The notes beneath the pieces are model-generated. The model saw nothing but the letters and a program-made list of their open reading frames with translations. It ran no database searches and was not told where the DNA came from. A stretch of DNA of 63,625 nt, counting the filler, from Octopus bimaculoides (taxonomy: Eukaryota): assembly GCF_001194135.2 (NCBI RefSeq). It is 5 parts of 5 records of this genome, joined end to end, with 100 filler letters (N's around TTAATTAATTAA, not from the genome) between each part and the next. Parts side by side here need not be neighbours in the genome. Positions count along the whole stretch, not along the records: positions 1 to 10,544 come from NC_068983.1; positions 10,645 to 34,392 come from NC_068981.1; positions 34,493 to 55,050 come from NC_069000.1; 2 more parts are not named here. The stretch is one strand, 5' to 3'. Positions within the stretch are counted from its first letter, which is position 1. Each line of letters opens with the position of its first letter. Below are positions 9,335 through 44,502 of this stretch, piece after piece. Both the position numbers and the translations under genes were made by a program.

Positions 9335-10260
9335 ATATATATATATAGGGAGAATTCACAAAAAAAAAACAAAAGACGAAGACAGGTGGTGTAGAAAACA
9401 AACAGATGTACTAATATAACGCTCGGGAATTGAAAAAGTCTTTAACGTTTCGAGCCTACACTCTTCCATAGAAAAGAACACAGAAAGAAACAAGCAGAGA
9501 AAAAAAATGTGTGTAGTGGTTAGCGATCTATCATGGTGAATGCCGGACAGAAGGGTCACACAGGAGAGCTATAAGAAGGGGAGATAACAATGTAGTAATG
9601 ATGCCAAAGTGAAGGTGTGTGCGTGTGAAAGAGGGCTGGTGATCTTGACATATGCGTATGAATAGGTGTGAAAATGTGGGGATGGGAATTGGTCAGTGCT
9701 GGTGTTGGAAGGTGGGGAAAGCATGGGTGGGGTGTGGGTTAGGCTGAGGGTGGGGGTAGAGGTGGGATATGTGGGTAGGCAGAGAGTGGGAGTAGAGATG
9801 GGGTATGTGGGAGAGGGTATAAGGGATAGGATGGGGAAGGTGGGGTAGGCTTAGGGAGGGTTGATGATGGGGAAGGGGAAGGTGGCTAAGAGAGAAAGAG
9901 AAGTAGGAGTCAGAGCAAGAGAGAAGTGGGTGGTAGGAAGTAAGAGGGAGGGGGAGTGAGGCAAGGGGGAAGTTAGATGAAGAGGGGAGGAGAGTTGAGC
10001 TCATGTGGTGCGAAGAGAGAAGATTAATCCCTTTTCACAGCGCAAACGGGAGTCTGGATGGCCCCTGTGCAAGGACAATCTGAACACGGATAGGTGTTGC
10101 GAAGAGTGACCGGTAGAGTGGAAATGGCGTGAGACTAGGGTGTCATTGCCAAGGCGGATGTCTCGGAGGTGTTCTGTGAACCTGTCAGCCAAGCGGCGTC
10201 CCGTTTGTCCGCTGTACAGAGAATGGCAGAGAGAGCAGGAGATGCAATAGATGATATTGG
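9335..10260 (-). mobile_element. Penelope-like element 3' fragment (GIY-YIG endonuclease + 3' region)
   Basis: [43 protein letters not shown] (10001-10260) is a PLE GIY-YIG domain. The 3' end carries a decayed hammerhead-type GAG..CTCGAAACGT motif. Confidence 0.85.
9440..9472 (-). ncRNA. Decayed minimal type I hammerhead motif (PLE-associated)
   Basis: Minus strand reads TGGAAGA GTGTAGGCTC GAAACGTT: CUGAAGA core mutated, GAAAC intact, ACGT palindromic stem III. Confidence 0.45.
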
Positions 10261-10290
10261 TAGAAGTGCAAGTATGTATGTGTGTATATA

Positions 10291-10337
<47 letters not shown>

Positions 10338-10544
10338 GGATATATATGTGTGTGTACATATATATATACATATGGATACATATGTATATATATATATGGA
10401 TATATATATATATATATATATTAAAGCCTCAGGCCGACCAAAACCTTGTGAGTGGATTTTGTACATGGAAATTGAAAGAAGACTGTCATATATATGTGTG
10501 TCTGTGTTTGTACCCCTCATCATTGCTTGACAACTGATGTTACT

Positions 10545-10644
10545 NNNNNNNNNNNNNNNNNNNNNNNNNNNNNNNNNNNNNNNNNNNNTTAATTAATTAA
10601 NNNNNNNNNNNNNNNNNNNNNNNNNNNNNNNNNNNNNNNNNNNN
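10545..10644. other. Artificial scaffold join N44-TTAATTAATTAA-N44
   Basis: Exactly 100 bp with a six-frame-stop palindrome. The identical construct occurs four times in the window. Confidence 0.95.
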
Positions 10645-12044
10645 TATACATATATATATATACATGCATACACACGCACACACAAACACACAAACATATA
10701 TAAAGATGAAGAGACAAAAGATGGACAAGTATTTATAGATGCTGTTAAATCATTTATAAAAGATGTTATATAAGCGTAAACATACATATTTCTGGAAGAA
10801 AGAGTAGCGTCCATAATATTGTTCAGATGTATTACAAAAAAAATCATTGACTGGTTAATGTAATAATGTATTATGCAAACAGGTGTACATTTCGATACAA
10901 TAATACACATGAATACATTAGTAATTTCCTATTAATGCAAAATGATAGAACGTTAAAATTTCAATTTGGAAACGTTGAAGCGCCGAATTGTCTCTGTAGA
11001 TGGATTAGTGGAAAAACGAAAGTTCATTAACTGTAAACCGATATTTAAGTGAATATAATAATCAGTAATAACAAAAATAACACCGTAAAGCTGAGGTAGG
11101 ACCGCTCTGCGATCGTTAGTGAGAGGGTGTAGGTAAAAAGGGCGGAAGGATAATAGAAAAGAGACATGTTTAGAAAAAGAGGAGATCCCTCTCTCCCCGT
11201 CTTTTCATTGGTGCTATGTATGCACATAAATATCTCTATAGTATTAGACAATTTGAATTTTGCTATTTCCATTCTGAACAGAAAACTCAACGCTTCAACT
11301 TATTCCAGTATTGTGATTATGCAATGATTAAATGTTTTAATCTCTTATTCGTATTATTAAACTAATGTGCAAACCGTATTCCATAACGAAATACCGCTGA
11401 ATATTTTTTTTTCCTTCCAAAAGGTTAATTATGTGTTAAGATAACTTTTATAAATAATATACTGCCACATATAAGTGTAGGGCCGCCTTGTATCATTTTG
11501 CTATGCACTCGAGCTATAAGTTTATTTGAGGCAACTCTTATACCTTGAGATTATTTTCACTTGGACTTATATGTTGGTCCTAAACAGTTCTGACTATTTT
11601 GAGGAATATTCCTACGTTCACTTATTATAAGCGCATATAATCCTCATATTACCCATTTGATATTTTTTTATATGATAGTATGTTGCGAACATTTAAATAT
11701 CTATGCATACATACGTACAGATATAGAAATATATGTACATATCTCTCCTTTCCACCATCTCTCCCTCTTCTCTCTCTGTGTCTGTATATATNNNNNNNNN
11801 NNNNNNNNNNNNNNNNNNNNNNNNNNNNNNNNNNNNNNNNNNNNNNNNNNNNNNNNNNNNNNNNNNNNNNNNNNNNNNNNNNNNNNNNNNNNNNNNNNNN
11901 NNNNNNNNNNNNNNNNNNNNNNNNNNNNNNNNNNNNNNNNNNNNNNNNNNNNNNNNNNNNNNNNNNNNNNNNNNNNNNNNNNNNNNNNNNNNNNNNNNNN
12001 NNNNNNNNNNNNNNNNNNNNNNNNNNNNNNNNNNNNNNNNNNNN

Positions 12045-12790
12045 ACACACTTTTTTACGTAGACAAAGAGAAAAAAAAAATGAATCAGCACGATTTCGAT
12101 TAGCTACAGACGCGTTTCGAGATTAAAGTATTTACTCCCCAATCAACACTTCTAAAATTTACACAGCCGAATGGGAATACTGAAAGCATATTTATCCGTT
12201 GTACCCACGTGTATGTTACACGCAGTACGGCAAAAAACTGCAGTATTCGATCAAGTATTAAATTATAATCTAAAATTAATAATAAAAGGGTGAAAGTAAT
12301 TAATTAAAATAATTAATCAATCAATTAATTAATAATTTTACCAAGTAGATCGGTACGTTAAAATAACCTTTATACCAATATTCTACAATTATAAACATAA
12401 CTTTAATTTAACCGTGGCACATTCATATTTCATAATGGAAATACTTCACTGATGACGGGAAGTAATAAATTAAAACCTTTAATCTCGAAACGCGTCTGTG
12501 GCTAATCGAAGTCGTGTTGATTCAGTATTTTTCTCTTTGTCTATGTAAAAAAAGTGTGTTACCGTCTAGGAGATTCTTACGGTAGTAGAAAAGTAATTGT
12601 TAACTCCTATTTCTAAATTCGGGTTGTGATGAAGCAATTAGCTGAACCCTAATTATAATTATGTTTATAATTATAGAATATTTGTGCAATTTTACTTATA
12701 AAGTTATTTTAACGTACCGTTCTACTTGGTAAAATTATTAAGTTATTGATTAATTAATTAATTTAATTAGTTAGCTTTACCCTTTTATTA
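12045..12790. repeat. Inverted, circularly permuted hammerhead-containing repeat (PLE pseudo-LTR / retrozyme-like)
   Basis: 12045-12140 is the reverse complement of ~12475-12560, and 12280-12400 is the reverse complement of ~12660-12790. Confidence 0.8.
12444..12501 (+). ncRNA. Type I hammerhead ribozyme motif
   Basis: CTTCA CTGATGA [stem II region 12456-12486] GAAA CGCG TC TGTGG: intact core, palindromic ACGCGT stem III, GUC cleavage triplet, imperfect stem I. Confidence 0.75.
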
Positions 12791-13260
12791 TTGCGGGGTG
12801 ATGCCTATAAACACTGCAGACGTTTTTCTCTTCATCTCTTTCAAATCTGACAATTTTTTGCTTGAAAGCCTTTTTACCTTGGGGGTGGGGACAAAAAAAT
12901 CTCGTTAGTCACGTTAATAGGTAAGATCGCATTAAAAGGAAGGTGGGTAATCGGGTCACGTCACTTTTAGTCTAGAACGTCCAGTAAAATTGTATTTTAC
13001 TCGCGTGAGCCTCTTCGTAAACTGTTTGAAGCAAGCCCACAGTTTCGGCCGTCGTTTTCTCCACCAGTTGGAAAAAAATCGACGAACAGGTGAAAAGCAC
13101 AGCAAAACAAAGACGAACCACGTGTCAGTATATCACAGTACAACACTGGTGCGTAGACCGATGCGTGAGGGTCGCATCAAGTGGCTTCTAGTGGCGGAAG
13201 CCTGAAGTACAACGGGCTTCTACCTCACAGAAAGTGTCCGGTTATTTTGGAGTTGATCCC

Positions 13261-13309
<49 letters not shown>

Positions 13310-13327
<18 letters not shown>

Positions 13328-13660
13328 ATATATGCATATATGCATACATATATGTTCATATCTCCATATACATATGTATATATATACATGCATATATGGG
13401 TACAGGATGTCAATAAAACGTGAACAAAAGGAAAAACGAGAACATAAAAAAAAACAAGGTAAACGAACTTTTTTCAAACAACGAAAGGAACAAAGAGAGA
13501 AACGAGTTAGGCAACACAAAGAACAATCCCTTTATCAGTTGTCCCCTGTTGTATCTACTCCGCGTTTCGAATGTTAGGACGTCTCTTTCTAATAGCCTTA
13601 AAAAGTTGTATATCATCAGGAGTAATTATATATACTCATACACTCCAAAGAGTCGAGTTC
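13310..13660 (-). repeat. PLE-like terminal repeat family with decayed hammerhead (related copies ~29920-30100 and ~30570-30780)
   Basis: Shared ..CATATATGGGTACAGGA..AAACGAAAACATAA..GAACTTT block. Minus strand has TACTC CTGATGA..GAAACGCG GAGTA at 13556-13624. Confidence 0.65.
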
Positions 13661-13770
13661 AAACGCTATTGATTTAATAAGTATATATTATATCAATATC
13701 GATCTCTTAAAATTTCTTCTTCACTAATATTTGATCTCTGCAATTTCTATACTAACGCAGAAGAAAATAG

Positions 13771-13804
<34 letters not shown>

Positions 13805-14088
13805 ATTATAGATTAGTATATGTCCTCGGGTTATACACTACATATCGTACATGCGATTCTTACAACCAAATATCACGATATTGATGTTTACATTTATGTT
13901 AGTCTTTCAAGAATGGCCCATTATGGATTATATATATCATTTAAGTTATGTTTAGTCGTTATAGACTATGCACAGAATTGTTCATGAGATCTGTGAAAAC
14001 ATATCAAATGGTGTACTAGAGCAACATAATGATTCATATTTGTTGAAGAATTGCTGCTACGATCTCTGTTGAAATATTTATTATTGAA

Positions 14089-14297
14089 GACGAGCTGGCA
14101 GAAACGTTAGCAAGTAGGGCGAAATGCTTAGCGGCATTCCTTTTGTCTTTACGCTCTGAAGTGAAATGCCACCAAGGTCGACTTTGCCTTTCATCGTTTC
14201 GAGGTCGATAAATTCAGTACCAGTTGCTTACTGGGATCGATCAGTTCAAATAGCCCCCTGCCCCAAAATTTCGGTCCTTGTGCTTAGATTAGAAACG
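14089..14297 (+). repeat. tRNA-derived SINE, family S1
   Basis: GAGCTGGCAGAAACGTTAGCA..GAAATGCTTAGCGG..GTCGACTTTGCCTTTCATC; seven further copies in the window. Confidence 0.8.
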
Positions 14298-14725
14298 AAT
14301 GTATATTGGTGACAGCCTTTTCATACAAACTAGTTGAGAATATATTTTTGGAGATATTTATATGTAAAACAATGATTTTCATATTATAATATGATTGAAA
14401 AACAATATGATTTTGATACTACTGCGACATTTGAAAAATGAGAAATTGTAGTTTCTAAATAAATCCAATCATGGCAACTAATAATCGATAAGATGATTCA
14501 AAGCAAAACATTGTGATGTATAAAGATTAGCTAAACCTGAGAGTGGAGTCACTTTTCACTCAACAGGATTGCTATGGAAGGACAAGTTGTTGCCCTGGAT
14601 ATTACACTCGAAAAGAGGATTGTGATAAATAGAAAGTTATGGACCTATGCAGGGCTATATTATCAAAAACGACTTAACGAAATTACTGGTTTACGTAAAC
14701 ATGCAAACAGTCTGATGTTCTTCGA

Positions 14726-14767
<42 letters not shown>

Positions 14768-14777
14768 NNNNNNNNNN

Positions 14778-14808
<31 letters not shown>

Positions 14809-20713: not shown

Positions 20714-22461
20714 CCCACAGGATATATATTCCTATGAATTTATTATCAGTTTCCACCTCTGATTATATACATCTCTAATTCTCTGTGTTATGACTGAGAT
20801 TTTCTCTTTCTTATCAACAGTTATGATTTTCTTCCTCTTAAGCCTGTTTTCGTTTCAGAAATTTGCTAAACATATTTCCAAATAGTAAAATATTTCCTAC
20901 ACTCCACTGGAATACTCAGTAAAACAGTTCTGAATATTCAGAATCTATAACTTTGTCGTTCTTTCTGCATTGGTATTAGAAATTTTCAAATAATTGAAAT
21001 ACGTAAGTAAATATAGAAGTACGTTATTGTGCTAATATAACATTTGCGGTTTGGTTACCAGTTATATAATGTATTATGTAATTTTATCTGCAAGTTGTTC
21101 TTCGACATACGTTTCTGCGTTTATTCCTCCAAAATATTACCTCATAAATTAAATCATTATATCTTCTTATATCTTCAATAGTATATATTATCCGCACATG
21201 TATGCGATGCACACACATTTACATACACACGCGAGTACACACACACGCGCGCGTGTGCGCGTGAATTTTTGCTAAGCTCATTAAATCCAAACCCCTCTCT
21301 ACTAGTATTTTCTTCACATCTTTTAACAATTATCATTCTCCCACTGAGCATAGTAAATATCCAATATCTCAAAATGATCGGATGTAACATCTGAATCATC
21401 CAGTTCCATAATCAAAAAGAAGGAATTTTTTCAACATTTGAACAGTTTCTATGACGATATTTAACATTCAATGGTTACTTGAAACATTGACCACCTAGAA
21501 GGAACAAGTTGGTGAAACTGCTGCGATGCCACATAAGACATGTTGGTCTCCATTATAGCAAACACCTCCCACGGATTTCTGCGACATTTCTTAATAAAGT
21601 TTATATTGTTGTCAATTCAGGTGAGATATTTGACGGTACGTAGAAGTGATAGGCATCATAGAAGAATATGTTGACATGCATCGTGCACGTAGGACGCATA
21701 GGCATAACATAATTTCTGCATCACTGTTTAAGTAGTTAAGCATGACATTCTCCAAGGTACTTCGATTGAGGGTTACGTTACTTGCAAATGTTGAGGAATA
21801 ACAATGTTTTGATATCTGCATATAATATTCGAATTATTTAGGGAACTTTAACGAGGGGTTTCAAACCCAGGATAGAGTAACCCTCTCCTTTCGCCGGATT
21901 GTCTTAATATACATATGCTTATAAATAGTCATAGAAACGTACACTCACGCACATATATGTATGTATATATATATATATAACTGTATGTTCATTTGTTCCC
22001 TTGTATGTGCATGCATGTGTGCGTGAATACATGTAACGTGAGTATGAACAATAATCATAGCTACGCTCTAATATGTACTGTTCGCTGTTGGAGAAATATT
22101 TGTTGTATATATTTACGACTTTTCTACACAGTAAATTACATGAAAGATCAGAGCAGCACTTCCTTGTGTGAAGACGTTCAAAATTCAATGAATATTATAA
22201 TTTATTTACAGGCCCTTAGTTTCTGATTTTAAATCCTGGTCAGGTCAAATTACTTTGCAACAATCCAACTTCATTTACATAAGGAATCTGTCAAGTAATG
22301 ACATAAAATATTCATGTATGCTTTCAAGATGTGAATGGAATATATTATAGAAGAAGAATAATAAGCTAAGAATTCAAGTATTTCGGGCTGAGGAATGTTT
22401 CACATGTTGTTATTCCGAACTTCGAGTCGAAGACAGCTCAAATACCATTGAGAAATCCTCA

Positions 22462-22605
22462 GCGTATCAAATTTCATTAGACTTGCCATTTCGAATTACT
22501 AGGTTAATTCATAAGAAAATGGAAGTATATTGCAATTTCGCATATTAGCTCCTTTTTTATGCAACACTTTAAGGCCATTTTATTTTGAAGGAAGAAAAGA
22601 ATACA
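22462..22605 (-). repeat. Second copy of the mariner 5' non-coding region
   Basis: TATCAAATTTCATTAGACTTG..GAATAC closely matches 19518-19660. Confidence 0.8.
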
Positions 22606-25110: not shown

Positions 25111-25970
25111 NNNNNNNNNNNNNNNNNNNNNNNNNNNNNNNNNNNNNNNNNNNNNNNNNNNNNNNNNNNNNNNNNNNNNNNNNNNNNNNNNNNNNNNNNN
25201 NNNNNNNNNNNNNNNNNNNNNNNNNNNNNNNNNNNNNNATATATATATATATAATTGAAGAATAAGATAAATTCTTTATAAGAATTTATCAAGTAGTTAG
25301 CTTGAGAAAACTTCATAAGAGAAAAATCTATCATTTTTCCCCTATAAATATATTTATTTATACAAGGGCATCTCTACACATAAGTGCCTCACGCTAAGAG
25401 AGACTCTAAAGACAAACAACCATAATAAACACATTCTTACCGAATGCAACTCACAAAGCCCCCCCCCCCTAAAAGCAGACTAAACAGTCAACCATGATTT
25501 CGTAATTTTTGAAGTATTATGCAAACTTTACTCATCAGTCTACGTATGGTCAAGACACATGAAAATAAACAAAAAAATCAACATACCAGACGTACACTCC
25601 ACGTATTCAGCATAGTACATAGAAAATTGTCTATATTCATATATCTATGTAAGAGGCGGACTTTTCGAATTGCATCTCGGTACATGTTTTGTCTTTCAGA
25701 ATAAAATTCAGCACCGAATACATTCTGGTCATATTTCTAATTCAAGAAATTTACCAAGTAGTTGGCGTGAAAAAACACCACATTAGGGAAAAATCCTGTA
25801 AATACGAAATCATGAGCTACAGTTTAGTCTGCTTTGAGGGGGCTAGTTTGAGACTTGCATTCCCTCGCGTTCGGTAAAAATATGTTTATTATGGTAGTTT
25901 GACTTTAGTGTCCCTCTTAGCGTGAGGCATTTATGTATAGTAATGCCCTTATATAAATATATACATATAT

Positions 25971-26021
<51 letters not shown>

Positions 26022-26099: not shown

Positions 26100-26600
26100 A
26101 TTCCATACAATAATCCTGAAACACTAAAAATAAATTTATTTAATAAAATAACCATTAACTTCTACTACGGCCTCCAGACGACTTCGGAATTTTGTGCCAC
26201 TCTTCTGGACGGTTTCCTTGTTTAAGTTGGTGAAAGCTGCTATAATCCTTGCCTTCAGATTATTGATTTTACAAGGAATTTTGTTGGTCTCTCGCACAAT
26301 TGAACCCCACACATAATAATCAAGAGGGTTGTATTCTAGGGAGTTGGGTAGCCAAATGTTGAGGAGATAGGATCGCTGAAATTGCACACAGTCATGTCTG
26401 GCTTCTCTTATTCTTGTAGCATGGTGGTGAATCATGTTGCCAGACATAAAAATATCATCCAGCAGACACCCTCTTGACCGATGGCAGAACAACCTCTACC
26501 AGACACTTGATGTAGGCCTCCGTGTTGCCTGAGGATATGTGGGAAATTGAATTGAGGCAGAACTTCACCATCACTAGTCATCACCCCAGAAACGATGATG
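26100..26600 (-). mobile_element. Tc1/mariner superfamily (maT/DD37D-like) transposase 3' remnant
   Basis: WLPNSLEYNPLDYYVWG..LKARIIAAF..FRSRLEAVVEVNGYFIK resembles the WPPNSPDLNPLDY..RLEAVV C-terminus. Confidence 0.8.
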
Positions 26601-26792: not shown

Positions 26793-29405
26793 CAGTAATA
26801 CGCATAATATTCACAATGCAACCAACAATAACAATGGAAATGACAACACCAACTACACCCCCACCACCACCACCACCAACAATAATGATTGCACTACCAC
26901 CATCAGCAACAGCAATGATAACAGCAATAGCAACAACCACACGAACAGCACCGTACACACCAGGAACAACAGCAACAACAACGTCCGTCACAATAACAAC
27001 AGCGACAGCAGCAACAGCAGCCACACATACAACGATAACAACAATGGCAACAACAACGCCTTAGAAAATCTCTTTTATAACCCAATTGACAAATCGTATG
27101 ATATGACGCGCATCTATCCAACGGATTTACCTTTCAACAAAAGAGTATGCATCTCGCCATACACAGATGATAAAACAGAAGCCGTGATCTCTTTAGCTAG
27201 AAGCAGACTCAAGAAAACATTAACACGTTATATAGCAACTGCACCAACACAAAACGAAGCAGAGGCCCACCAACTCGGTACAGTAGCTGCAATGGGCATA
27301 CGAAAACAAAAGCATAAAGTTAGAAACAATGAGATAGTATGCCTCCCTACAGACAAATCAGGCAGGATATCGGTAGACAGCCTGCAAAACTACACCCATA
27401 CGATGCAAAAACATATAGAAGATATGAGAGAAGTTACACAGCAAGAATATGAAAAAGTAGAGAACATTCTCAATGCACACATGGGAATGTGGTGTAACAT
27501 ACTCCAACCTAAGAGACGCACAGCACAGAACTTCGCATCATCCAACAACGACATTCCTACACTCTATGGGTTACGAAAAGACCATAAACCCATTGCAGAC
27601 CCTATCATGGGCCCCCCGTGTCGACCAATATTGCCAGCAACTATAAGCTGTCATTCTTCCTCTCACAGATATTAAGACCACACATCGAGATGACTCCTGA
27701 TGTTTGTGAAAACACTCATGACCTCCTCAGCAGAGTCAATGAAAGTAACTGCTCCCATGACCTGACAGATTGTATTATAGGCAGTATGGATGTAGTATCT
27801 CTCTATCCATCCATTGACATTGACTTTGCCGTAGAGAGATGTGTGGAAATTATTTCGGAAAGTGAAGTAACCTACTGTGAAGTGAACACGAGGGAACTAG
27901 GCGTCCTCCTAAAGCTCGTTTATAATAATGAATACTTAGATCACCACGACCTAACTAGATTCTGCCCCACCAGGTCAGGACGGGGTAGACCACCTACGAT
28001 CACAGCAGCTGCTAGAAAAACCACCGCAGAGCGTTGGAATGGATGGAATACACCCACCCACGACCCAGAGGATAATATCCAAACACGAAAAATGGTTGCA
28101 CATGCTGTAGGTGCAAGTGTGAAGACCACCCTGCAGAACCATATAGTTAAATTCAATGAAAAACTATACTTGCAGGTCCAGGGAGCGGCTATTGGTGTCA
28201 GTGTGGCCGGAGACGTGGCAAGCCTATTCATGACCTGGTGGGACAAAAAGCTGAAAACAACTCTCGAAGAACACTCAATAACAATCAAACTATACGGGAG
28301 ATATGTGGATGGCATTAACATCGTAGTCAAAACGCCATCAAACATTCAGACTGAAGAGAACGAGAAGATCGTGAAGGAAAACATCCAGAATATAGCTAAT
28401 ACACTACACCAGAGCATCAAATTAACAATAGATTACCCAACAAGACACCTAAACATGAGACTCCCAGTACTTGACACAGAACTTTGGCTACAAACAATTA
28501 ATGACTAAGTTCAAATCCTCCACTCCCATTATATGAAACCTAGATCTTCAAAGTATGTTATCCATAAGAATTCGGCTCTATCACACAGTGTGAAAATCAA
28601 TATATTAATAGCCGATTTACTTAGAATAATGAAAAACATATCCCCCCTGTGCAGTCCATGGCAGAGGCAATGACATATTCAAGACTTCATGCATCGCATG
28701 CAGTTTTCGGGATACAGCCAGGAAGATAGAATCCGAGTATACATAGGAGCTAACAAGAAATTTGAGGAGATTGTTGTCAAAGATACTGATGGAACACAAC
28801 CTAGATACCGTAACAAACAGTGGAATGGACTACAAAGAATTAGTGACAAAACCAACAGAAAGAGCACGTGGTACAATACCGACAAGTTCCAGGGAGTAAT
28901 GTTTGTGGACGCCACGCCACACAGAAAACTGGCCCGCAGATTTTGAAAAGTCCTCAAAAGTACCAAGTTGAGGATAAATGTTATAGAAAAACCATGGAGA
29001 TCCATTAGATCAATAATATGTAAAACATATCTCTTCAGAAGAACAAGGTATGTTGAGGAGAGTTGCATTGTGTGCAAATATAGTCCTGGTGCCAACTGCA
29101 AAGCCAGAAATGTGGTCTACAAAATAAGCTGTATGGATGGTGAGTGTAAAAACAGAAACACGACATACATAGGTGAAACGGCAAGAAGTTTGGCTGAGCG
29201 TGTAAACGGACATTGGAGGGACTATAATAATCAAAAACAAACATCGGTGCTCTACCAGCATGCCAAAGAACAACATGTTGGTGTACTGGACAGAATTAGC
29301 AGAGAAATCATGTCTAGACACCCTGGTGACGCATCGTTGCGGCAAATACAGGAGTCGGTCCTTATAACTGAAACGCAACCAATTTTGAACACCAAATACA
29401 CGTAG
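26793..29405 (+). mobile_element. Near full-length Penelope-like retroelement, Naiad-like (RT + C-terminal GIY-YIG), inactivated
   Basis: VCLPTDKSG, LYGLRKDHK..RPI, SMDVVSLYPSI, QGAAIG, RYVDG (YVDD mutated), LPVLD, then CIVC..NCKARNVVYKISC..YIGETARSLAER..H. One frameshift (~27640) and in-frame stops TAA 28506, TGA 28671, TGA 28944. Confidence 0.9.
28968..29405 (+). pseudogene. GIY-YIG endonuclease domain of the Penelope-like element
   Basis: NVVYKISC..TYIGETARSLAERVNGH..QHAKEQH..QIQESVLI. Confidence 0.9.
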
Positions 29406-29857
29406 ATGAGGGCCTTACAATTGCCCGTGGTTGCATGTGTTGTTCACACATATGATGCGGAATATGAACGTAAATAAATAAATTTAAATAAAAAAAAAGT
29501 TTTAAAGTCTCTATCTGTTCTGATATAAACGAAAATGTTACAAACACACATAGACGCACGTACTTACATATAAGCACGAACACATAAGTGCGTGCACACA
29601 TATGAGCGTGCACACATATGAGCTTGCACACACTCACATGCTCATACCGAACAGTTTCAAAACAACGCCAAAACGACGCCAGATCATACCTTCAAAATAA
29701 ATGGAAGTGGAGAGACAAGTTACTGAAGAGATTGCAAGAGTGCAATGAAATAATTTAACAAAAAACTATATAAATTAATAAAGGACTGAACCAGTGCGTG
29801 TGTTTATTACCGGCATAATGCCTCTCCCAATGTTTAATTGTATATATATATATATAT

Positions 29858-29908: not shown

Positions 29909-31013
29909 GAGAGAAATAATATATACGTATATGCAAATATCCATACATATATGTTCTTACCTACATCTATGTGTATACATACATGCATATATAGGTACAG
30001 AACCTGAAAAAAGAAACAATAAACACAATGAGAAACGAAAACATAATACGAACTTTATTGCGTTTCGAAGGCAAGGACAATACGTGACTTCATTGGAACA
30101 GTCCTTCCCGCAAAGCAAATTAAATAAAATGTTGAATTTTTGTGGAGTGTGAAACTGTTAACAAGAAAAGGACAGTGAGAACAAGACAGCAAAAACAAAC
30201 GGTGAGGGCTGTTGAGCCAAGACGATAGAAACATTATTATGAACGCTAGGCAGACGTGCCATGAGAGAAGAGAGAGAAAAAACATGTCTTTTCTTTAGGA
30301 AGGCAGTTGACAGAAAGAGAGAACCCCTTTCGTCACGTGTTAGCGAATAGAGAGTCAAGGATGAACAGTGAGACAGGGATTGAAAGAGAGGGAACGGTGA
30401 AAGGCAGAGAAGAATAGGGAAAGGGTGGGTGAGTAAAAGAGAAAGGATGAAGAACAAGAGAGGGAAAGAGGTAGACAGAGGAGCGATAGTTGTAGAGTGT
30501 GCATTGTAATTATTAAGATAAAATTTACTTGGAAAAGGATGCGTGGCGTTCGATCATATAATGATATAAATAATATATAAATATATGCATATATCCATAC
30601 ATATATGTACATACCTACATCGATATGTATACATAGTTGCATATATGGGTACAGGACATAAAAAAAAACCTTAAACACAATCAGGAAACGAAACATAAAA
30701 ATGAAAAGAAAAAGAACTTTTTTCGAACAACGAAAAAAACAAATATACAAATATATGTGTATGTGTATGTGCTGTACATATATATNNNNNNNNNNNNNNN
30801 NNNNNNNNNNNNNNNNNNNNNNNNNNNNNNNNNNNNNNNNNNNNNNNNNNNNNNNNNNNNNNNNNNNNNNNNNNNNNNNNNNNNNNNNNNNNNNNNNNNN
30901 NNNNNNNNNNNNNNNNNNNNNNNNNNNNNNNNNNNNNNNNNNNNNNNNNNNNNNNNNNNNNNNNNNNNNNNNNNNNNNNNNNNNNNNNNNNNNNNNNNNN
31001 NNNNNNNNNNNNN

Positions 31014-31049
<36 letters not shown>

Positions 31050-31269
31050 ACAAAAGGTAAGTTAAAAAGAACAATTCACACTGTTTGTGAATTGAGAGAC
31101 AAGGTGGTTTCTAATAAAGGTTCATCATATTCATGAAAATCATCCAAACAAGTAATGCGAATATGAACGTAATATTTTACGAGATCTGTTATAGGTATAA
31201 GAATATACCATATACAAGTAAAAAAAAAGAATGGAGAAAAGATGTTGAAACACAATGTTTAATATAAAA

Positions 31270-31415
31270 CTGGATTCAAGGCATAGGTACGTTTCTAAAA
31301 ACAATGCAAAAATGTTAAAAAAAATATAAATCGTAGTGATTTTAATTATAAAATAAAAATAAAAATTTAAAATATATTTAATGCATTGTCATTTCTCATC
31401 AGTGAGAAATCTTTT
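31270..31415 (-). ncRNA. Hammerhead-like motif with extended stem II (copy 1)
   Basis: CTGATGA at 31402-31396, ACAATGCA/TGCATTGT stem II base, GAAAC at 31295-31291. Stem III is decayed. Confidence 0.55.
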
Positions 31416-31935
31416 GAAGGACATCAAAGTAGTCATGAAGTAAAATGAGATTTAAAAATAACATAATAAAAGGAAAATAAGATACAATAACAGAACATGG
31501 ATGGGACAATAAGGGAGAATCTGGTAATTTACAAACAAAGTTGAGAACGGGAAAATAATCATATCAAAAATAATGATGGTGAGGGAGACGAAAAATAAAA
31601 ATAAAACGTATAGCATAGGAATCTAACGGATGTAGTTTTAAAAAATAAACAATAATAATACACACCGTTCTAGACGAAATACAGTTTAAAGAAGGCTACG
31701 TGAATTTATTTGAGTACAACGTAATAATTCAACTAGCATAACGGGGCCATAGAGGGTTATAAAAATACATAATAATATTATTGAGTAAACAAGTAAATAT
31801 ACAGACAAAAACAAAACCAAATTTTTTTCTCAAAGAGTGACGGCGTGCACAGTTTTTGTCTTTTTTTCTCTCTCTTCCTTCTTGTATGGGTATGTCTTCA
31901 ATGTTTGTGCATATTTATGTATGTTTGTGCATGTC

Positions 31936-32696: not shown

Positions 32697-33599
32697 CATA
32701 CATATTTACGTTTTCTTGTTGTGAATGCGTACTCCTCTTTCATTTTTTATATGTTGTATCCATCCCTTATATATGCACCTTTATGTATGTGTGCTCCGAT
32801 ACATTCACATGTGTGTCGTAGGTGATGTATGCATTGTGTATGCATGTATGTGGGTATGTTTGACTGTATATTCCTTATGTGTTATGTGTATACGTGTTTT
32901 TTTTCTCTTTATTACTTGTGAATTGTTTAATAAGTATTTTTCTCCTTTATATATTCGTCTTTGTTTCTTACCCTTTTTTCGATACTCCTTTCAGTTGCCT
33001 CCTCTACGCCCGGCAATTTTTTTGAATAGAGACATTCTGCTGAACACACCAACCTACCCTGACTTTGATCGTATTCTGCCTTTGAAAAAAAACTCTTTGG
33101 TTTTGTTTGTGCCTTTGCTTTCATTCTCAAACATACTGTTTTTCATCAGCTTTAAGTCTCTGGTAAATAATGTATATACTTAGTAGTTTTTCATTATTAT
33201 TATGTATATCTATAACTCTCTATGGCTTTCTGATGCTAGTGGAATTGTTACATTGTATTCTATTAAAAACACATGGTTTCTTTATACTGTATTTCGTCTA
33301 AAACGGTGTTTATTATTATTATTTTAAACACATCCGTTAGATTCTTATGTTATAGTTTCTTTGCGCATATACACTTGCATACACATCGATAATTTTTTAA
33401 TTTTACTTTTATTTTTTGTCTCTCTCACCATTATTATTGTTGATATCATTATTCTTCCCGTTCACAACTTAGTTTGTAAATTACCGATTTCCCTTATTGT
33501 CCCATCTGTGTTCTCCTATTGTATCTTATATTCTTATTATTTTAATTAATTTTTATCACATTTTACTTCGTATTATTAAACTTCTTTGATGTCCTTCAA

Positions 33600-33778
33600 A
33601 AGATTCCTCACCGATGAGAATGGCAATGCATAAATTAAATTTTGAATTATATTTTTATTTTCATTCTTTATATTAATATTTTTTTTTAATTTTCAGTTAT
33701 AATTATAATCACTATGAATTAAAGTTAGTTCTTGCATTTTTGCATTGTGTTTCGAAACGCATGTTTGTATTGAATCCT
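33600..33778 (+). ncRNA. Hammerhead-like motif with extended stem II (copy 2)
   Basis: GATTCCTCA CCGATGA G..CAATGCA..TGCATTG..C GAAAC GCATGT T TGTATTGAATC. Core U4 is mutated to C. Confidence 0.5.
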
Positions 33779-33890
33779 GTTTGATAATAAATATATTTCT
33801 GTTTCAACATATTTTCTCCATTTTTAATACTTGTCTGTGGTATATTCTTATACCTTTAAAGATTCTCATCAAATATAAATGCATATATAC

Positions 33891-35225: not shown

Positions 35226-35439
35226 ATGCACATATCGTTAGCCACCTACGGACTTGCTCAACTGGTTAAGGTCAAATAACTGACAAGCAAATCTGTAATA
35301 TTGAGTGGGATATATGCTGTAGCCCATCTTTTATGCCAAGACAAATCATGTACATGATGATGCTTCCAATCAGTTAAGATCAGAAACCATGAGAGCCAGT
35401 GCCTAGCACTACATTAGGGCATTATTATTATTAAACTAT

Positions 35440-35980
35440 AAAGGCACGGAGCGCCGTCAGCCGAGCATGTCCGAGTTGCGCGCAGGAAGACGAGACGGTT
35501 CTGCATGCACACGTCAAGTGCCCGAGTATTGCTAACCTATGGGTTTATGTCGAATACCTGCTGTCGCGTGTAGGACTGATCCGGCTATCAACTGAATCCA
35601 TCGTGAAGATCGCTCCGTCACCTTCCTTTGACCGGGAAGGAAAGGCTGTTTTTATATGCGTGGTGGCCATGGCGAAAGAGGTTTTTTGGTGGACGAGATT
35701 GAAGGAGCTGTCGACAAACACGTTTCTCTATGGCCACTCCCTCATCAGCACTTGAAAAGGGAAATAAGATTAGAGAGGGAAGCGTTGTCTTCCAGCCATT
35801 TTGCTGAAAAGTGGATGAAGGTGGCGAAAATGGTGCGAGCGAACGGGCCTACCCTGAGCATATGCTTGTAATTGAAGAAAAGGAAAGGAACAGAGGTACC
35901 TACCCCAAAATTCAGGTTACCCATGGTTTTTATAGGGGTTTTCCACGAGGAGCCCACAAGCGTCTCCTCCCGGAATTTGA
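35440..35980 (+). mobile_element. Tx1/L1-clade LINE 3' end (ORF2 CCHC zinc finger and C-terminus)
   Basis: ACPSCAQEDETVLHAHVKCPSIANLWVYVE..AKEVFWWTR..HLKREIRLERE..FAEKW, with one frameshift. Confidence 0.8.
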
Positions 35981-36635
35981 ACTCAGAACGTAACGGCAGA
36001 CGAAATACCGCTAGGCATTTCAATAATGAAAATACCATGTTTTTAGTATCAAAAATTTAAAAGTAGTCATTGTCATGATAAATGCTAAAACAAGACAAAG
36101 CAGAACAGCGAGCGGAGGAGGAGGACGGGAGATAACAGTAACTGGATCTGCAACATTAACAACAACCACAAAAACAAACGAAACAAGAAGCAAACCAGAT
36201 GACAAACGAAACAGAAAGAAGACACGTGTTTAACAATAAGTGGGTACTTCCGTGAAAAAAAAAAAAGACCTGATTGTGCACTTCCACACTCTGCTCTTTA
36301 CATGACACACTCGCTAATGATATCTCGTACTACTGGAGAGGTCAGAAGTCATAAGAGGACAAGAGGTCATACTGGAAAGCGGTCAGTCATTGACCTATAA
36401 TAGAGATTGTGCAGCAACAACAACAATAACAAAGAAGGGAAACGGAAGAAAGGGCCATTCCAGCTCATTAATATAATGTTTCTCATAGGGGGTGGAAGGT
36501 TTCTCCCTCATTCCCGAGGCTGGGGCTGTGGAGACTGAAAAGGGGTCGGGAAAATGGTTGTATCAGTGCACATTGCGTTTCTAATTATTTAAAGCGAATT
36601 TTAAAACTTCTCTACCACCATGACGACCAAAGAAT

Positions 36636-36852: not shown

Positions 36853-36911
36853 CGTATATGAATACTAGTCTCCATTTTCGACTCCTTGGGGAACAAAACA
36901 AATTCTACTGA

Positions 36912-38294: not shown

Positions 38295-38344
<50 letters not shown>

Positions 38345-38349
38345 TAAGC

Positions 38350-38550
38350 ACAGGTGGAGTCCCTGTTCAACCTCACCAATGCCCTATTCATGGAGCAAGT
38401 TGTACTCAGATCAACAAGGGCGAATACCATTTTGGATCTCTGCTTCACAAACAATATGGACATCGTTTGTGATGTGAAGGTGACGCCGACATTAGTCTCG
38501 GATCACAACATAAAAGAGCTGTCTATGTTTGGGCCAAAAGAGTCGGACTC
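38350..38550 (+). mobile_element. CR1/L2-clade LINE AP-endonuclease fragment
   Basis: EQVVLRSTRANTILDLCFTN..LVSDHN is an APE C-terminal motif. Confidence 0.8.
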
Positions 38551-38744
38551 GTGATCTGGCGATTGTGAACGGGGCACCGGAAACACATACGAACGCGCGC
38601 GCGCGCACACACTCACACATGCACACACTAATGGTAGTTTCTCGTGCCTACACACACATGCACGCGCACGCACACACACATGTATGTGGATAATCCTTGC
38701 GAGCTCTCCTACGATAACCACAAACCGTCGTCATCAACAGTCTC

Positions 38745-39255
38745 GTGACGTCTAACATTACATCACCATCATCCAAACCACCACCACCACCACCACCATC
38801 ACCACCACCACCATCATCATCATCCAAACCACCACCACCACCATCGCTGCCGTCNNNNNNNNNNNNNNNNNNNNNNNNNNNNNNNNNNNNNNNNNNNNNN
38901 NNNNNNNNNNNNNNNNNNNNNNNNNNNNNNNNNNNNNNNNNNNNNNNNNNNNNNNNNNNATCTTCGCCATTATGATTACGACCGTCATAATTACTGCTAC
39001 AACTACAGCAACTTCTTGTCATCACCAACACCACCACCACCACCACCATCACAACGGCAACCAGAATCGTCACAAACCACCGCCTTTACCGCTGCTAACA
39101 CCACCAGCATCAGCAGCACCAAAACCTACACCACCACCCCAACAACAACAACAACAACACTACTAGTGTGTTGTTTCCTGTTTGCAATTTCGGTCTTTAA
39201 GTACTGCGTCCTGGAACAGTCAGTACACCAATGTCGAAGAACATCAACAACAAAA

Positions 39256-39317
<62 letters not shown>

Positions 39318-39320
39318 ATC
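38745..39320. repeat. Compound trinucleotide microsatellites (CCA, CAA, ACT)
   Basis: Directly visible. Confidence 0.9.
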
Positions 39321-39685
39321 ATTAAATTGGTAGATTACGTTCCAAATCATTTCGTATTATCATGTCCTAGTTTAGTGTCCTAAATATCAACACAATGTTT
39401 ACAAGGAGTTGGAATCCAATATTTTCTCTGCTAAATTAAAGGGCCTTCCTCATTCTTCCTGTGCCATCTGTCAAAAACGAACAGACGTAAGTCTTGTTTT
39501 CTTTCCATAATGAAACAGGAGCCGAATTACGATCGACACTCAAAGCTTTCCATGGGATTTCGAACCTATTGGAGAGTGAAAAATGGATATTTAACAGTTA
39601 ATTCTTGCAGAAGGCCTTGGCAGGAGATAAATTAAAAGGTAGAGAGAGAAAAGACAGACAGCTAACCAGCTACATAGGTATATGC

Positions 39686-39723
<38 letters not shown>

Positions 39724-39754
39724 ACACACACACACACACATATGATATATATAT

Positions 39755-39915
39755 ATACGACGAACTTCTTTCAGTTCCCGTCTACCAAATCGACTCACAA
39801 GGCTTTGGTCGGTCCGAGATTATAGTAGAGGACACTTACCCCAGGTGCAACACAATGGGACTGAACTCAGAACCATGTGGCTGGGAAGCAAACTTCTTAC
39901 CACACAGCCATACGT
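39755..39915 (-). repeat. SINE family S2 fragment
   Basis: CACAAGGCTTTGGTCGG..GGGACTGAACTCAGAACCATGTGG matches 49160-49330. Confidence 0.8.
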
Positions 39916-40316
39916 ATGTATAAATACACACACACGCACACACACACTTGGATCCAACTTGTACAAATGCAAAGCAGAAGTCAAACAAAAAATAATAATA
40001 ATAATATTGCCGAACGACCTGCCACTCAAATGATTTGTTTTTATTCTGATCAAATGCATGTGCCGCCGCCGTGCATTAGTTCACTCCCTCCTCCATCAAA
40101 GTGACGTTGCCTGAATTGGTGCACAGGCGTCAAAGTGATCATAGAGCAACGTGAATTGCAGTGTTTTTCTCAGGAACACAACGTACCACTCTGTCTAGGA
40201 ACTGAAACCACGATCTCGCGGTCGTAGTGCAACACCTTAACCATTAGGCCATGCGCCCTCATTATATATATATATGTGCGCGCGCGCGTGTGTATTTGCG
40301 TGTACTTCAGAGCTGT

Positions 40317-40633
40317 CTAGTTCAGACGAAGCATTTTCAATGCTGATGCTTCTTCCGTCAAAAGGCGCCTGCGGAAACGCCCCACCCAAGGCATCCACGT
40401 TTCCATTGACGCCACAGAAGGAAACACCGGGAATCTGAGAATAAAAGAAGCCATCATCAGTAGCAAGACCAAACCACAGATTGATAACCGAACCGAACTG
40501 CGCGCAACTGAATAGTGGTGCCATCTTATCCATGCAAAGCAAAGTTTGATATGCATTGAGGCATACGCACAATGCAGAGCAGAAAATCTAGCTTGCAACA
40601 CTAAATCTCCGAAGATTTCCTTAAGAAAGGGTC
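40317..40633 (-). CDS. Possible terminal exon of the TSP1 receptor gene (unverified)
   Basis: GC/CpG-richer island with an open frame to a stop at 40317. A ttag|GA acceptor after a pyrimidine tract gives phase 1, matching the TM exon donor. No recognisable domain. Confidence 0.25.
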
Positions 40634-40736
40634 CTAACTCCAAATATGGAAATACAAGATAAAAGTAAAATCGCTGACTTCTATCTTATTTTTTATTACT
40701 GACATTGTTTAGGGTTTACTAAAAAAAAAATTGAAC

Positions 40737-40782
<46 letters not shown>

Positions 40783-40894
40783 GTCACATATATAGATATA
40801 GTTGAAAAATATCGTTATAGGTATAAATATACCATAAACAATTAGAACAATGGAGGAGAAAAAGATGTTGAGTCAAAATTAGATTTAATACGAA

Positions 40895-41012
40895 ATAGGA
40901 TTCTGTAAATACGCGCGTTTCAAAAGACAATACAAATATGTAAGAAAAAATTATAATCATAGTAATTATAAATAAATTTATGCATTGTCATTTTCATCAG
41001 TGTGAGGAATTT
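40895..41012 (-). ncRNA. Hammerhead motif with extended stem II (copy 3, best preserved)
   Basis: CTGATGA (41000-40994), ~12-bp stem II base, GAAA, perfect palindrome ACGCGCGT (40911-40918), GUA triplet. Confidence 0.65.
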
Positions 41013-42544
41013 TTGTAAGGACATCAAAAAAAGGTTTAATAAAATAAAGTAAATGAAANNNNNNNNNNNNNNNNNNNNNNNNNNNNNNNNNNNNNNNNNN
41101 NNNNNNNNNNNNNNNNNNNNNNNNNNNNNNNNNNNNNNNNNNNNNNNNNNNNNNNNNNNNNNNNNNNNNNNNNNNNNNNNNNNNNNNNNNNNNNNNNNNN
41201 NNNNNNNNNNNNNNNNNNNNNNNNNNNNNNNNNNNNNNNNNNNNNNNNNNNNNNNNNNNNNNNNNNNNNNNNNNNNNNNNNNNNNNNNNNNNNNNNNNNN
41301 NNNNNNNNNNNNNNNNNNNNNNNNNNNNNNNNNNNNNNNNNNNNNNNNNNNNNNNNNNNNNNNNNNNNNNNNNNNNNNNNNNNNNNNNNNNNNNNNNNNN
41401 NNNNNNNNNNNNNNNNNNNNNNNNNNNNNNNNNNNNNNNNNNNNNNNNNNNNNNNNNNNNNNNNNNNNNNNNNNNNNNNNNNNNNNNNNNNNNNNNNNNN
41501 NNNNNNNNNNNNNNNNNNNNNNNNNNNNNNNNNNNNNNNNNNNNNNNNNNNNNNNNNATATATATATTTGGTGCAATACTTACTTAACATACTTTGTGTG
41601 TCTTCATGGAAAAGAATACTTTCAGATGCGGCTCCATATGCTGAAAATATGAATACAAACAGGTTTTGTTTGGTGTTTTGAAAGTTTGGAATATCTGGGC
41701 CAAATCGGCGAACGGGAAAAGACTAAGAGGAGAAGTTTCAGACCGAATCGGGATACTTTCTCAGCAGATAAAACCATATATACGTATACGCATGCATGCA
41801 TGTATCTATCCATCCATCCGTCCGTCCGTTCGTACATACATACATACATACATACATACATACATACATACCTATTGTCGCGAAACGCAGACATACACAC
41901 AACACAAACATAAACACCAAACACAAACACATACACTCACATATACTCATTAGAAGCGCATCGACAAGTACACATATACGGATATGTATGCATTAGCACA
42001 CACGCCAACAGGGCAACTTGTATGTGTAGTTTGACCAGGTAGAAATAATAGTCCGATATTCTTCATGTCATATCGCACCGTCTTAAAAATGTAAGGAAAC
42101 ATTGGATAATGTAGGCCAAGGTACACTTAGCCTGAATGAAACTAGGGATGAACACGGGGTGGGAATGCATCTTTGATCACAGATTTCCCTTGGTTTAGAC
42201 AACAATACATACAGTTACTAGCACTAGCAACACATAACACTCGCACACACACACGTACTTTCTCGCATACACACACATACACACGTACGTATTTTCTCGC
42301 ATACACACATACACGCACAATATCTTAATTAGGCATCATGCTGATTTTGTTGAAAAGCAAAGTGGGAGAGAATATTTAAAGAATGATTAACCTGAGCGAA
42401 GTGACATAAAGTACCTTGCTCAAGGACACAACGTTTTACCCAAACCAGGAGCCGAACTCACTATCTGGTAACCACGAGCAGAACAAACCTAACCATTCGA
42501 CCATCACTTTTCCAGTCCAGCTCTGTATGCGTATTGGATTAACA

Positions 42545-42958
42545 TTTTAGCACAGGACCATCAATTTCGGGATGGGGGTATGTCGATTACATCAACCCCA
42601 GTGCGTAACTGGTACTTATTTTATTGACCCTGAAATCATAAATGGCAAAGTCGACCTCGGCAGAATTTGAACTCAGAACGTAGCGACGGGTGAAATACCG
42701 CCAAGCATTTCGCCCGGTGCGCTAACGATTCCCCCAGCTCACCGCCTTATTATTATTATTGATGATAATAATAATAATGGTTTCAAATTTTTCCACAAGG
42801 GCAGCCATTTTGGGAGAAGGGATTAAGTCGATTATATTGAAAGGATGAAAGGCAAAGTCGACCGCAGCGGGATTTGAACTCAGAACGTAAAGACGGACGA
42901 AATGCCGCTAAGCATTTTGTCCGGCGAGTTAACCATTCTGCCAGCTCTCTGCCTTCGC
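42545..42958 (-). repeat. Two tandem SINE S1 copies (42545-42752, 42783-42958)
   Basis: GGCAAAGTCGACC..GAATTTGAACTCAGAACGT..AAGCATTT in both. Confidence 0.85.
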
Positions 42959-43015
42959 TATGTATGCTTATTAAAATTTTAAAAATGATTATGTATAAGC
43001 ACCCTATCCATTTAC

Positions 43016-43153
43016 CAGCGGCGATTCCTTTCCGATTGCGACTCCAGAGAATTATTACCGCCAAAATCAAAAAGACAAGAAGCACGAAGCAAACGGAACT
43101 GAGAACAATGGCGATTGGGACACTCGTTTCCGATTTTCTCACGTTGGTTTTTT
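43016..43153 (-). CDS. TSP1 receptor gene exon 6: transmembrane helix + basic stop-transfer
   Basis: cag|AA acceptor; VPIAIVLSSVCFVLLVFLILAVIILW SRNRK; G|gtaaat donor; 138 nt, phase 1-1. Confidence 0.85.
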
Positions 43154-43550
43154 CTGTTAGAAAAATAAAATGGAAGAAAATATATAAGCAATAAGAATCA
43201 GAAAACAAGACAAAAATGCAATGAAATAAATAATTCAAATAAAAGCGTTTGAAGTGCTCTTTGCCCTAAAATTGGGTGAAGGATAAGATTGTGTCTTTAC
43301 TATGAGCAGAGACAACACATGCGTACGCACACACACATACGTACACACACACACACACGTACACACACTCTCTCTCTCTCTCACATACACACACACACAC
43401 AAACACACATTCTCTCTCACACACACACAAGCACGCACGCACACATTCACACTCTTATGTACACGGTCTCGTATACACACGAGCATGTAAATTTCCAGTC
43501 AAGAAAAACAAATTAGACACGAAAAGAAAATTCAAAACAGGTTTACTCAC

Positions 43551-43742
43551 GCATTGTTGTGACGGAAGGTAAACTGTTTTTAGTGCAAATCGTTGACATG
43601 CAGGCTCGAATTTGTTGCGCAGCACCTTCACACATTGGAGACCCGAAAGGGTTCAGACAAGATCGAGTGCGTATCTGGATCCCTTCGTTGCAATTTCCAA
43701 CACACTGGCTCCATTCAAACCAAGACGTCCATTCGTTATCCA
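43551..43742 (-). CDS. TSP1 receptor gene exon 5: thrombospondin type-1 repeat 2
   Basis: WTSWFEWSQCVGNCNEGIQIRTRSC..CEG..QIRAC..IC; ag/gtgagt borders; 192 nt, phase 1-1. Confidence 0.92.
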
Positions 43743-43746
43743 CTGC

Positions 43747-43788
<42 letters not shown>

Positions 43789-44014
43789 ATGTGTATGTGT
43801 GTGTATGTATGTATATATACATGTGTATATTTTTGCATGTATGTATGTCATTTTTCAGTTTTATTTCAAGATTTCTTGCCAATAAAGAAAATCCCGGTTT
43901 CTAACCTAGATCCAAAGAATTCATTGGAATTTCAACATCAACAACAGCATATTTTTGTATGTATGGATGTATGTATGTATGCATGTAGGCATGTAAAAAT
44001 AAATCGAAAGTTAT

Positions 44015-44502
44015 AATGAATAAACGCTCCAATCGGTCAAAACGACTTTATAACATTCCCATATTATCATAAATCGAACATAAATATATATTAAAACACC
44101 TATATACGAATAAGAGGGGTGATAAAACCAAAAACTGTAATACGAGTGAAGTCGAATGCAGAAAAATATATGGATTAAATTAATGCATAATAAAAGCAAC
44201 TAAGAATTTAAGGCTACGAAACTAAAACGATATAAATATATATAAAAATGTTGGGCAAAGTAGAAACCAGAAAAGAGTCCATTCTAATCCATCTCTACGA
44301 TCGTTTCAAATGACGTTGGTTCATTTCGTCAGTGTAAAACCCTTTTAGGTCTTATCACCTTTTATTCGTATATATGTGTATATTTTATACTATTGCGTTT
44401 TACCATTGGATGCCTTGATGTTTTAATATATATTTATGTTCGATTTATGATAATATGGGAATGTGATATAGTTGTTTTGACCGATTGCAGCGTTCATTCA
44501 TT
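44015..44502. repeat. Intronic inverted repeat (arms ~44015-44135 and ~44343-44502)
   Basis: CCCATATTATCATAAATCGAACATAAATATATATTAAAACA versus its reverse complement at ~44420-44460, with flanking matches. Confidence 0.85.
44290..44340 (-). ncRNA. Intronic type I hammerhead-like motif, sense to the host gene
   Basis: CTGACGA (44332-44326) AATGA-loop-TCATTT GAAA CGATCG TA; perfect palindrome ACGATCGT. Stem I pairing is weak. Confidence 0.6.

Follow-up and report, generated by a model that had tools for sequence, protein, structure and literature searches.

The genome of Octopus bimaculoides (NCBI RefSeq assembly GCF_001194135.2; 2.34 Gb) provided the DNA analysed here, a window of 63,625 nucleotides (nt) that is a pack of five joined stretches. 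An original prediction, made from the sequence alone, had listed hammerhead-ribozyme-like motifs at nine sites in it. Most of these motifs are hammerheads of the type known from Penelope-like elements; remnants of a new hammerhead variant occupy two of the nine sites. We consider it likely, at a probability of about 0.7, that the nine sites are decayed and unlinked 3′ ends from five families (A to E) of Penelope-like build, of which family B carries a rewired hammerhead that is predicted to cut RNA at one bond. Probable too, at a slightly lower level of confidence, is the broader proposal that Naiad elements and their short parasites carry a novel, non-circular permutation of the hammerhead, with the core opened between A9 and G10.1 and two extra helices inserted. 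This form is predicted to cleave as a monomer; its copies would number in the thousands in this genome, and it would also occur in the Naiads of distant animal phyla.

The rewired fold of family B

The window contains two copies of family B and one adjacent motif, as follows.

13262..13580, minus strand: family B copy, starting 2 nt past the predicted cut; GAAA block at 13560-13573, core block at 13528-13545 mutated to CUGAUAA.
13613..13619, minus strand: CUGAUGA cited in the original prediction; flanking DNA outside family B, since repeat homology stops at 13580.
30059..30751, minus strand: family B partial tandem (the upstream 3′ end at 30556-30751, then the body).

Both sites had been read as type I hammerheads. 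At 13.6 kb, the CUGAUGA needed for that reading lies beyond the end of the repeat, and the candidate was rejected; at both sites, the family has a non-circular permutation instead. The 30-kb copy retains hairpin P0, the upstream strand of stem II, the site block (30075-30086), and the GAAA block (30060-30071), with the CUGANGA block deleted. Genome searches with the two copies returned 2,921 and 3,374 first-look candidates.

The order of the family B segments in the RNA is strand x, hairpin P0, strands a and b, the predicted cleavage site (GUC, GUA, or GUU), GAAA, strand l, CUGANGA, and strand o; no CUGANGA is found ahead of GAAA. The helices of family B and its relatives are wired as follows. 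In stem I, the segment that follows the site pairs with the one ahead of CUGANGA, and in stem III the strand ahead of the site pairs with that past GAAA. Stem II is formed by the upstream strand a and the strand ahead of GAAA, the first G of a being G10.1. Helix P, formed by b and l, joins the flanks of stem III and clamps the fold. Helix X, formed by o and x, fills the gap between A9 and G10.1 together with P0, which ends directly at G10.1. The hammerhead core nucleotides CUGANGA, GAAA, and U-H are all in register, and core variation by subfamily is confined to the tolerant positions N7 (U, C, or A) and H17 (C, A, or U).

The exact site–GAAA–core pattern has 488 matches in the genome versus 0 in a reversed control. 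When the stem I of family B is excluded from the pattern, there are 3,102 matches versus 28 in the control, and these comprise several families with different stems. Stems I, II (with the G10.1-C11.1 pair), and III surround the core with covariation, and the pair types differ between families in stems I, II, III, X, and P0. Thus the stem II partners co-change as GAAGG/CCUUC, GAACG/CGUUC, GAAGAG/CUCUUC, GACACC/GGUGUC, and GGCUGG/CCAGCC, and helix X is CCCU/AGGG, UUCCU/AGGAA, GGGG/CCCC, or CCA/UGG according to family. A descriptor of all six helices found 82 distinct matches in the fetched loci, which were mostly pattern-selected, and 0 in the same 1,695,330 bases reversed; one of the 82 resembles a chance parse. 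In a random background of sixty 10-kb stretches (522,794 non-N bases), there are 2 matches, suggesting several thousand intact copies in the genome. Two additional families with the six-helix fold, of unrelated sequence, are represented by L290 (minus strand) and by L231, L232, and L243. Within family B, pairing holds in 92.7% of cells for the four helices followed in 44 BLAST-picked copies, and two-sided changes number 35 (14.0 +/- 3.5 in shuffles, 0/500).

The block order site–GAAA–core is that of the type SGC hammerhead (HRIMA-1 and variants), which, according to the portions of Eckert 2023 (PMC10085705) used here, is found in metatranscriptomes only and in no genomes of known organisms. 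A rival reading is, therefore, that family B is an ordinary type SGC hammerhead in which the strand past the core displaces the upstream strand, the pairing of a with the strand ahead of GAAA, X, and P0 being an inactive storage fold or a switch. The resemblance extends to the short linker between stems I and II (2–5 nt from site to GAAA), the purine past the core, the full set of core nucleotides, and the pseudoknotted stems I and III, and the alternative stem II pairs in 85.8% of family B cells, mostly through G-U. But a type SGC hammerhead takes its stem II from the strand directly past CUGAnGA, whereas family B takes it from the upstream strand and has X and P0 at A9/G10.1. In the 9 representatives of 12 that could be parsed, the upstream strand closes the base of stem II with 4/4 Watson-Crick pairs, against 0–3 for the post-core strand; since the parser selects for pairing, the control is the decisive part. 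In the L232 family, the post-core strand is CCCC and faces a C-rich strand ahead of GAAA, so that pairing is impossible (0 pairs), and the weak G-U version is conceivable in B alone. In the parsed families, X and P0 abut A9 and G10.1 without a spacer. Plain type SGC was accordingly dropped for family B, the post-core strand in other families being unable to form stem II, and we regard the displaced-strand version as improbable. The rewired fold also differs from type SGC in being present in thousands of copies in an animal genome. In the sections of Eckert 2023 used here, known hammerheads have at most 1–2 nt between CUGAnGA and the stems, and the descriptor demanded CUGAUGA(U)G immediately ahead of stem II; this explains why the family B fold was missed there.

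Naiad elements and the predicted cleavage

Naiads were reported to lack canonical hammerheads (Craig 2021, PMC8557442), although some, including Naiad_Ovul, were flagged with half cores 35–50 nt apart; the annotations in the parts of that source covered here are only 'HHR_core' or 'HHR_half_core'. We inspected its supplement by eye at 58/62 CTGATGA, 14/43 CTGAAGA, and 14/23 CTGACGA places, and part 24 as a whole. Within this coverage, the family B wiring is recognisable at the 3′ ends of eight Naiad consensuses: Obim and Ovul, the entry preceding Mley (with a weak stem I), the three that precede Aacu, Anas, and Movir, and two more, from part 12 and part 19. Five other Naiad entries, near the Hcon and Nbra headers (supplement parts 13–16), have by eye the order CUGANGA–site–GAAA and an ordinary stem II, that is, type CSG. 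Naiads may thus carry two different non-circular permutations.

In the octopus genome, short motifs of the published Octopus Naiad 3′ end have 121 exact matches, and the matching family (L350-L379) keeps the fold, with 18 six-helix descriptor matches. At L351 and L441, the fold lies about 1 kb 3′ of the C-terminus of a reverse transcriptase (RT; RVT_1 E=2e-5), with no GIY-YIG between. The RT is thus the C-terminal domain, as in Naiads, a finding that concerns the L350-L379 family and not family B; the RT-linked copies fetched are 5′-truncated before the region of the N-terminal GIY-YIG and CxC linker. Between stem III and helix P, this RT-linked family has a kink-turn-like loop (a 3-nt bulge and tandem G-A), and the asymmetric loops at this junction, which differ by family, suggest a conserved bend.

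As far as the consulted parts of PMC8557442 describe it, the Naiad clade shares with the elements here (TA)n targets, partial tandems, inverted 5′ copies, and RT as the last domain; it has an RT, whereas family B is non-coding in the copies seen and was tied to no RT. Tandem units of family B, which run non-coding from ribozyme to ribozyme as in non-LTR retrozymes (LTR, long terminal repeat), measure 651–745 nt in 5 gap-free pairs; one other pair gives 1,103 nt. Family B showed no open reading frame (ORF) link in the tblastn search described below, so that its dependence on a Naiad RT is presumed.

The proposed mechanism is as follows. The family B fold would be an active monomeric ribozyme that cleaves past H17, and, as stem III is intramolecular, no dimer would be required. 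Cleavage of consecutive tandem copies would release unit-length RNA (about 650–750 nt for B), which a Naiad-type RT would copy into (TA)n from an internal start near the 3′ end of the element. Copies from cut RNA would stop just past the cut site, and copies from uncut or circular RNA would yield longer and tandem insertions. Internal priming near the 3′ end has been shown for the anole Poseidon element, in the portion of PMC11167929 covered here.

The predicted bond was compared with the 5′ ends of genomic copies in two groups. Group 1 consists of the first 90 of 462 copies that were selected solely on sequence 3′ of the site. Among its 82 copies whose 5′ end is not at a gap, 17 end at positions 0 to +10 and 4 at −11 to −1 (p=0.007). 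Group 2 (90 of 1,376 copies) replicates this, with 13 versus 3 ends in the same intervals among 75 copies (p=0.02); a further 4 ends are at +12/+13 and 13 are spread across the next 100 nt upstream. The 13.6-kb copy in the window has its 5′ end at +2.

A second rival reading is that the fold is real but non-catalytic, for example an RT binding site or a protein site of kink-turn-like form in which hammerhead-derived sequence has been reused, and that the pile-up of 5′ ends comes from RT stalling or (TA)n microhomology. The kink-turn-like loop of the RT-linked family is in keeping with this, as is the assumption, in the part of PMC10085705 used here, that a core cannot be opened at A9/G10.1. 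The ends peak a few bases past the cut, at +5 to +10 and not at 0, and many are at (TA)n junctions, so that microhomology or stalling may contribute. Against a non-catalytic fold, end density falls sharply at the predicted bond in both groups, and CUGANGA, GAAA, U16.1, and a non-G H17 stay in register across families with unrelated stems. We judge this rival unlikely, if somewhat less so than the type SGC one.

The place of the 5′-end peak and the G-U pairing of the alternative stem II both weigh against an active rewired hammerhead, and so do several other points. The two window copies are both incomplete, and the window has 0 six-helix descriptor matches. Pairs with a two-sided change number 5 in the 44 family B copies versus 4.7 in shuffles (291/500), and the cell counts overstate the independent events because the copies are related. 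A tblastn search with the RT and GIY-YIG pieces of the window, which is insensitive to a distant Naiad RT, found no ORF upstream of family B. Three raw RNA runs (795–1,153 family B reads each, both strands) and one contig set show no pile-up of family B starts or ends, with no ends and no diagnostic junction of linear or circular monomers among the reads present. Loose ends exactly at the predicted cut occur in two runs with one common junction sequence; their most plausible source is a single transcribed copy in the genome. Finally, in the portion of PMC11167929 covered here, the Poseidon element could insert in vitro without cleavage and RNA-seq reads starting at the cut were absent, which limits any claim that cutting is required. 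On balance, the hammerhead carried by family B probably still cuts.

Type I families and the layout of the window

Families A, C, D, E, and F represent known biology in a new host. Their features in the window are listed below.

9328..10273, minus strand: family E, 5′-truncated 3′ end of a Penelope-like element with C-terminal GIY-YIG; GIY-YIG fragment at 10001-10264.
9440..9471, minus strand: family E minimal type I hammerhead; the core of this copy is CUAUGGA.
12045..12134, minus strand: family A inverted half copy with GAAA, stem III, and site, without CUGANGA.
12139..12792 (12139-12408 minus, 12406-12792 plus): family A fold-back insertion, non-coding.
12443..12499, plus strand: family A type I hammerhead with CUGAUGA, palindrome ACGCGU (stem III), and GUC site.
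26908..29405, plus strand: family F, broken autonomous Penelope-like ORF with RT pieces and then a C-terminal GIY-YIG (28947-29402).
29719..29759, plus strand: family F 3′-end minimal type I hammerhead with 4-base-pair (bp) stem I, CUGAAGA, bulged G, and 6-bp stem II.
31014..31777, minus strand: family C copy with a damaged type I hammerhead, loop II about 100 nt; core at 31396-31402, GAAA block at 31282-31297.
33195..33876, plus strand: family C copy in the opposite orientation to that at 31 kb; core CCGAUGA, stem III damaged.
40812..41056, minus strand: family C copy cut through by an assembly gap; core intact, stem III ACGCGCGU, stem I mismatched.
43967..44520, no strand assigned: family D fold-back insertion; hammerhead-like motif at 44293-44334 (minus).

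Families A, C, and F have the CUGANGA core, stems I and II, palindromic stem III, and NUH site of minimal Penelope hammerheads, and would act as ordinary type I ribozymes of the dimer type. In family A, the core is CUGAWGA in 19/30 aligned copies and the site is GUC or GUA; stem I has 6 bp and is eroded in the window copy. Its copies are fold-backs or partial tandems with ends at (TA)n, and one pair gives a non-coding, ribozyme-to-ribozyme unit of 552 nt. Family C has CUGAWGA in 17/29 copies, the palindrome ACGUACGU, a GUA site, and a long stem II capped by an AU-rich loop of about 100 nt. No tandem units were seen for families C and D. The family F hammerhead is intact and common to its relatives; it was absent from the original list.

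Families D and E have altered cores and may be weak or dead as ribozymes through these family-wide changes. Family E (4,663 first-look candidates in the genome) has CUGUGGA, that is, A6 changed to U, in 19/26 copies, which is either a tolerated core variant or a sign that the element spread with a dead ribozyme; the window copy has a purine/pyrimidine-biased 3′ untranslated region and a (TA)n flank. The core of family D is mostly UUGACGA or UUAACGA, with CUGACGA in 2/28 copies, and stem I shows no pairing.

The original prediction placed a single hotspot at 9440..44340. Since the nine sites are spread over three unlinked contigs, in stretches 1 (contig C3), 2 (C1), and 3 (C20), a single hotspot is excluded, and the apparent one is a packing artefact. 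Motif density is at most 2.4 times the random genomic background, which is not significant. An exact site was defined as CUGANGA plus GAAAC with a palindrome and a non-G base (H) after it. The window has 4 exact sites versus a mean of 0.18 (maximum 2) in 100 shuffles, so the motifs are real; the random background has 15 in its 522,794 bases, or 1.64 per window. A paired type I descriptor matched 2 versus 3 times (window versus background; p=0.08), and its relaxed form 1 versus 9 times (p=0.64). The Rfam profile scan that had been proposed as a check gave no hammerhead among the best 150 of 166 matches at E<=5, only microsatellite noise.

As for the motifs themselves, at least eight CUGANGA...GAAAC arrangements had been claimed. 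Four of the nine sites are exact (12.45, 31.3, 40.9, and 44.3 kb), and the remaining five are altered or incomplete. The count of at least four families was correct, genome searches giving five (A–E), without their forming one local hotspot. The statement that most sites are in inverted repeats holds for A, D, and the C pair at 31 and 33 kb, and not for E, both B copies, or the 40.9-kb C copy.

The proposed Penelope-like origin is borne out by the GIY-YIG fragment upstream of E and by the element with RT and GIY-YIG upstream of the 29.7-kb motif, so that an RT plus GIY-YIG ORF is seen for F and, as a GIY-YIG piece only, for E; the loci screened for families A–D yielded none. It is borne out too by partial tandems, inverted 5′ copies, and (TA)n flanks, in agreement with the Penelope patterns in the consulted parts of Craig 2021 (PMC8557442). 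The further suggestion of retrozyme-like non-autonomous elements suits A and B, judging from their tandem units; intact catalytic cores for D and E were not supported.

The model behind that prediction, a single locus rich in type I retrozyme families that cleave as dimers and give rise to circular RNAs, draws on the type I cores and palindromic stems III of A and C and on the tandem unit of A, and its type I reading stands for these two families. As a whole it is very improbable, given the three unlinked contigs, a density within background, a family B that is not type I, and the non-canonical cores of D and E.

Other observations concern single loci. Candidate motifs at 6.5, 22.4, 35.7, 40.4, and 53.1 kb were unsupported as hammerhead families among the loci examined; 22380-22470 is a short, imperfect inverted repeat in which each strand carries CTGAGGA, and it has no relatives among those loci. 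A fold-back element at 25343-25971 has an intact CUGAUGA, a 4-bp stem II, and GAAA at 25498-25538 (minus strand), and one relative was seen (L343). Three further type I hammerhead families (L262, L290, and L308) were found in the random background stretches. The family D copy lies between two similar exons (43543-43854 and 44938-45351, minus strand) and is likely intronic; from their WxxWxxWS-CxxxC motifs, we take these exons to encode thrombospondin type 1 repeats. LTR-retrotransposon pol fragments occupy 266-3981 (RVT_1 match at 3259-3978). The pieces at 7309-7638, 26136-26495, and 35435-36056 presumably correspond to an RTE-type LINE, a Tc1/mariner transposase, and a LINE 3′ zinc-binding region, respectively (LINE, long interspersed nuclear element); in a profile search of the three, only zf-RVT matched, weakly.

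Relation to known systems and significance

Families A, C, E, and F resemble the minimal type I Penelope hammerheads of Cervera and de la Pena 2014 (PMC4209133), as far as the portion used here goes, in type I order and palindromic stem III; those hammerheads share a bulged base at 9/10.1 with E and F and occur as single or opposite-strand copies. The differences from them are a loop II of about 100 nt in C, a fixed A6U in E, and, in D, U3 with G8 (or UUAACGA) together with the lack of stem I. Families A and B resemble non-LTR retrozymes (Cervera and de la Pena 2020, PMC7229834; Li et al. 2026, bioRxiv 10.64898/2026.07.22.740005), which have been proposed to be non-autonomous Penelope derivatives, in having non-coding tandem units between hammerheads. 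In the parts of these sources consulted, retrozyme units are about 220–400 nt, whereas the units here are 552 and 651–745 nt, dispersed, and 8–20% diverged.

No description of the family B wiring was found in the open-access literature, nor is there such wiring in the portions of Forgia 2023 and DasGupta 2021 that were covered. Hammerheads with additional helices, for which Weinberg 2015 is cited in the part of PMC13725137 used here, may offer a precedent.

If the fold cleaves, the published statement that Naiads spread without hammerheads would be overturned, as would the assumption that CUGAnGA is inseparable from stem II. Non-circular hammerhead permutations would move from environmental RNA to animal genomes, at high copy number, and standard descriptors and Rfam would be shown to miss a large class. 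The pile-up of 5′ ends offers a genomic handle on the open role of hammerheads in Penelope-type transposition.

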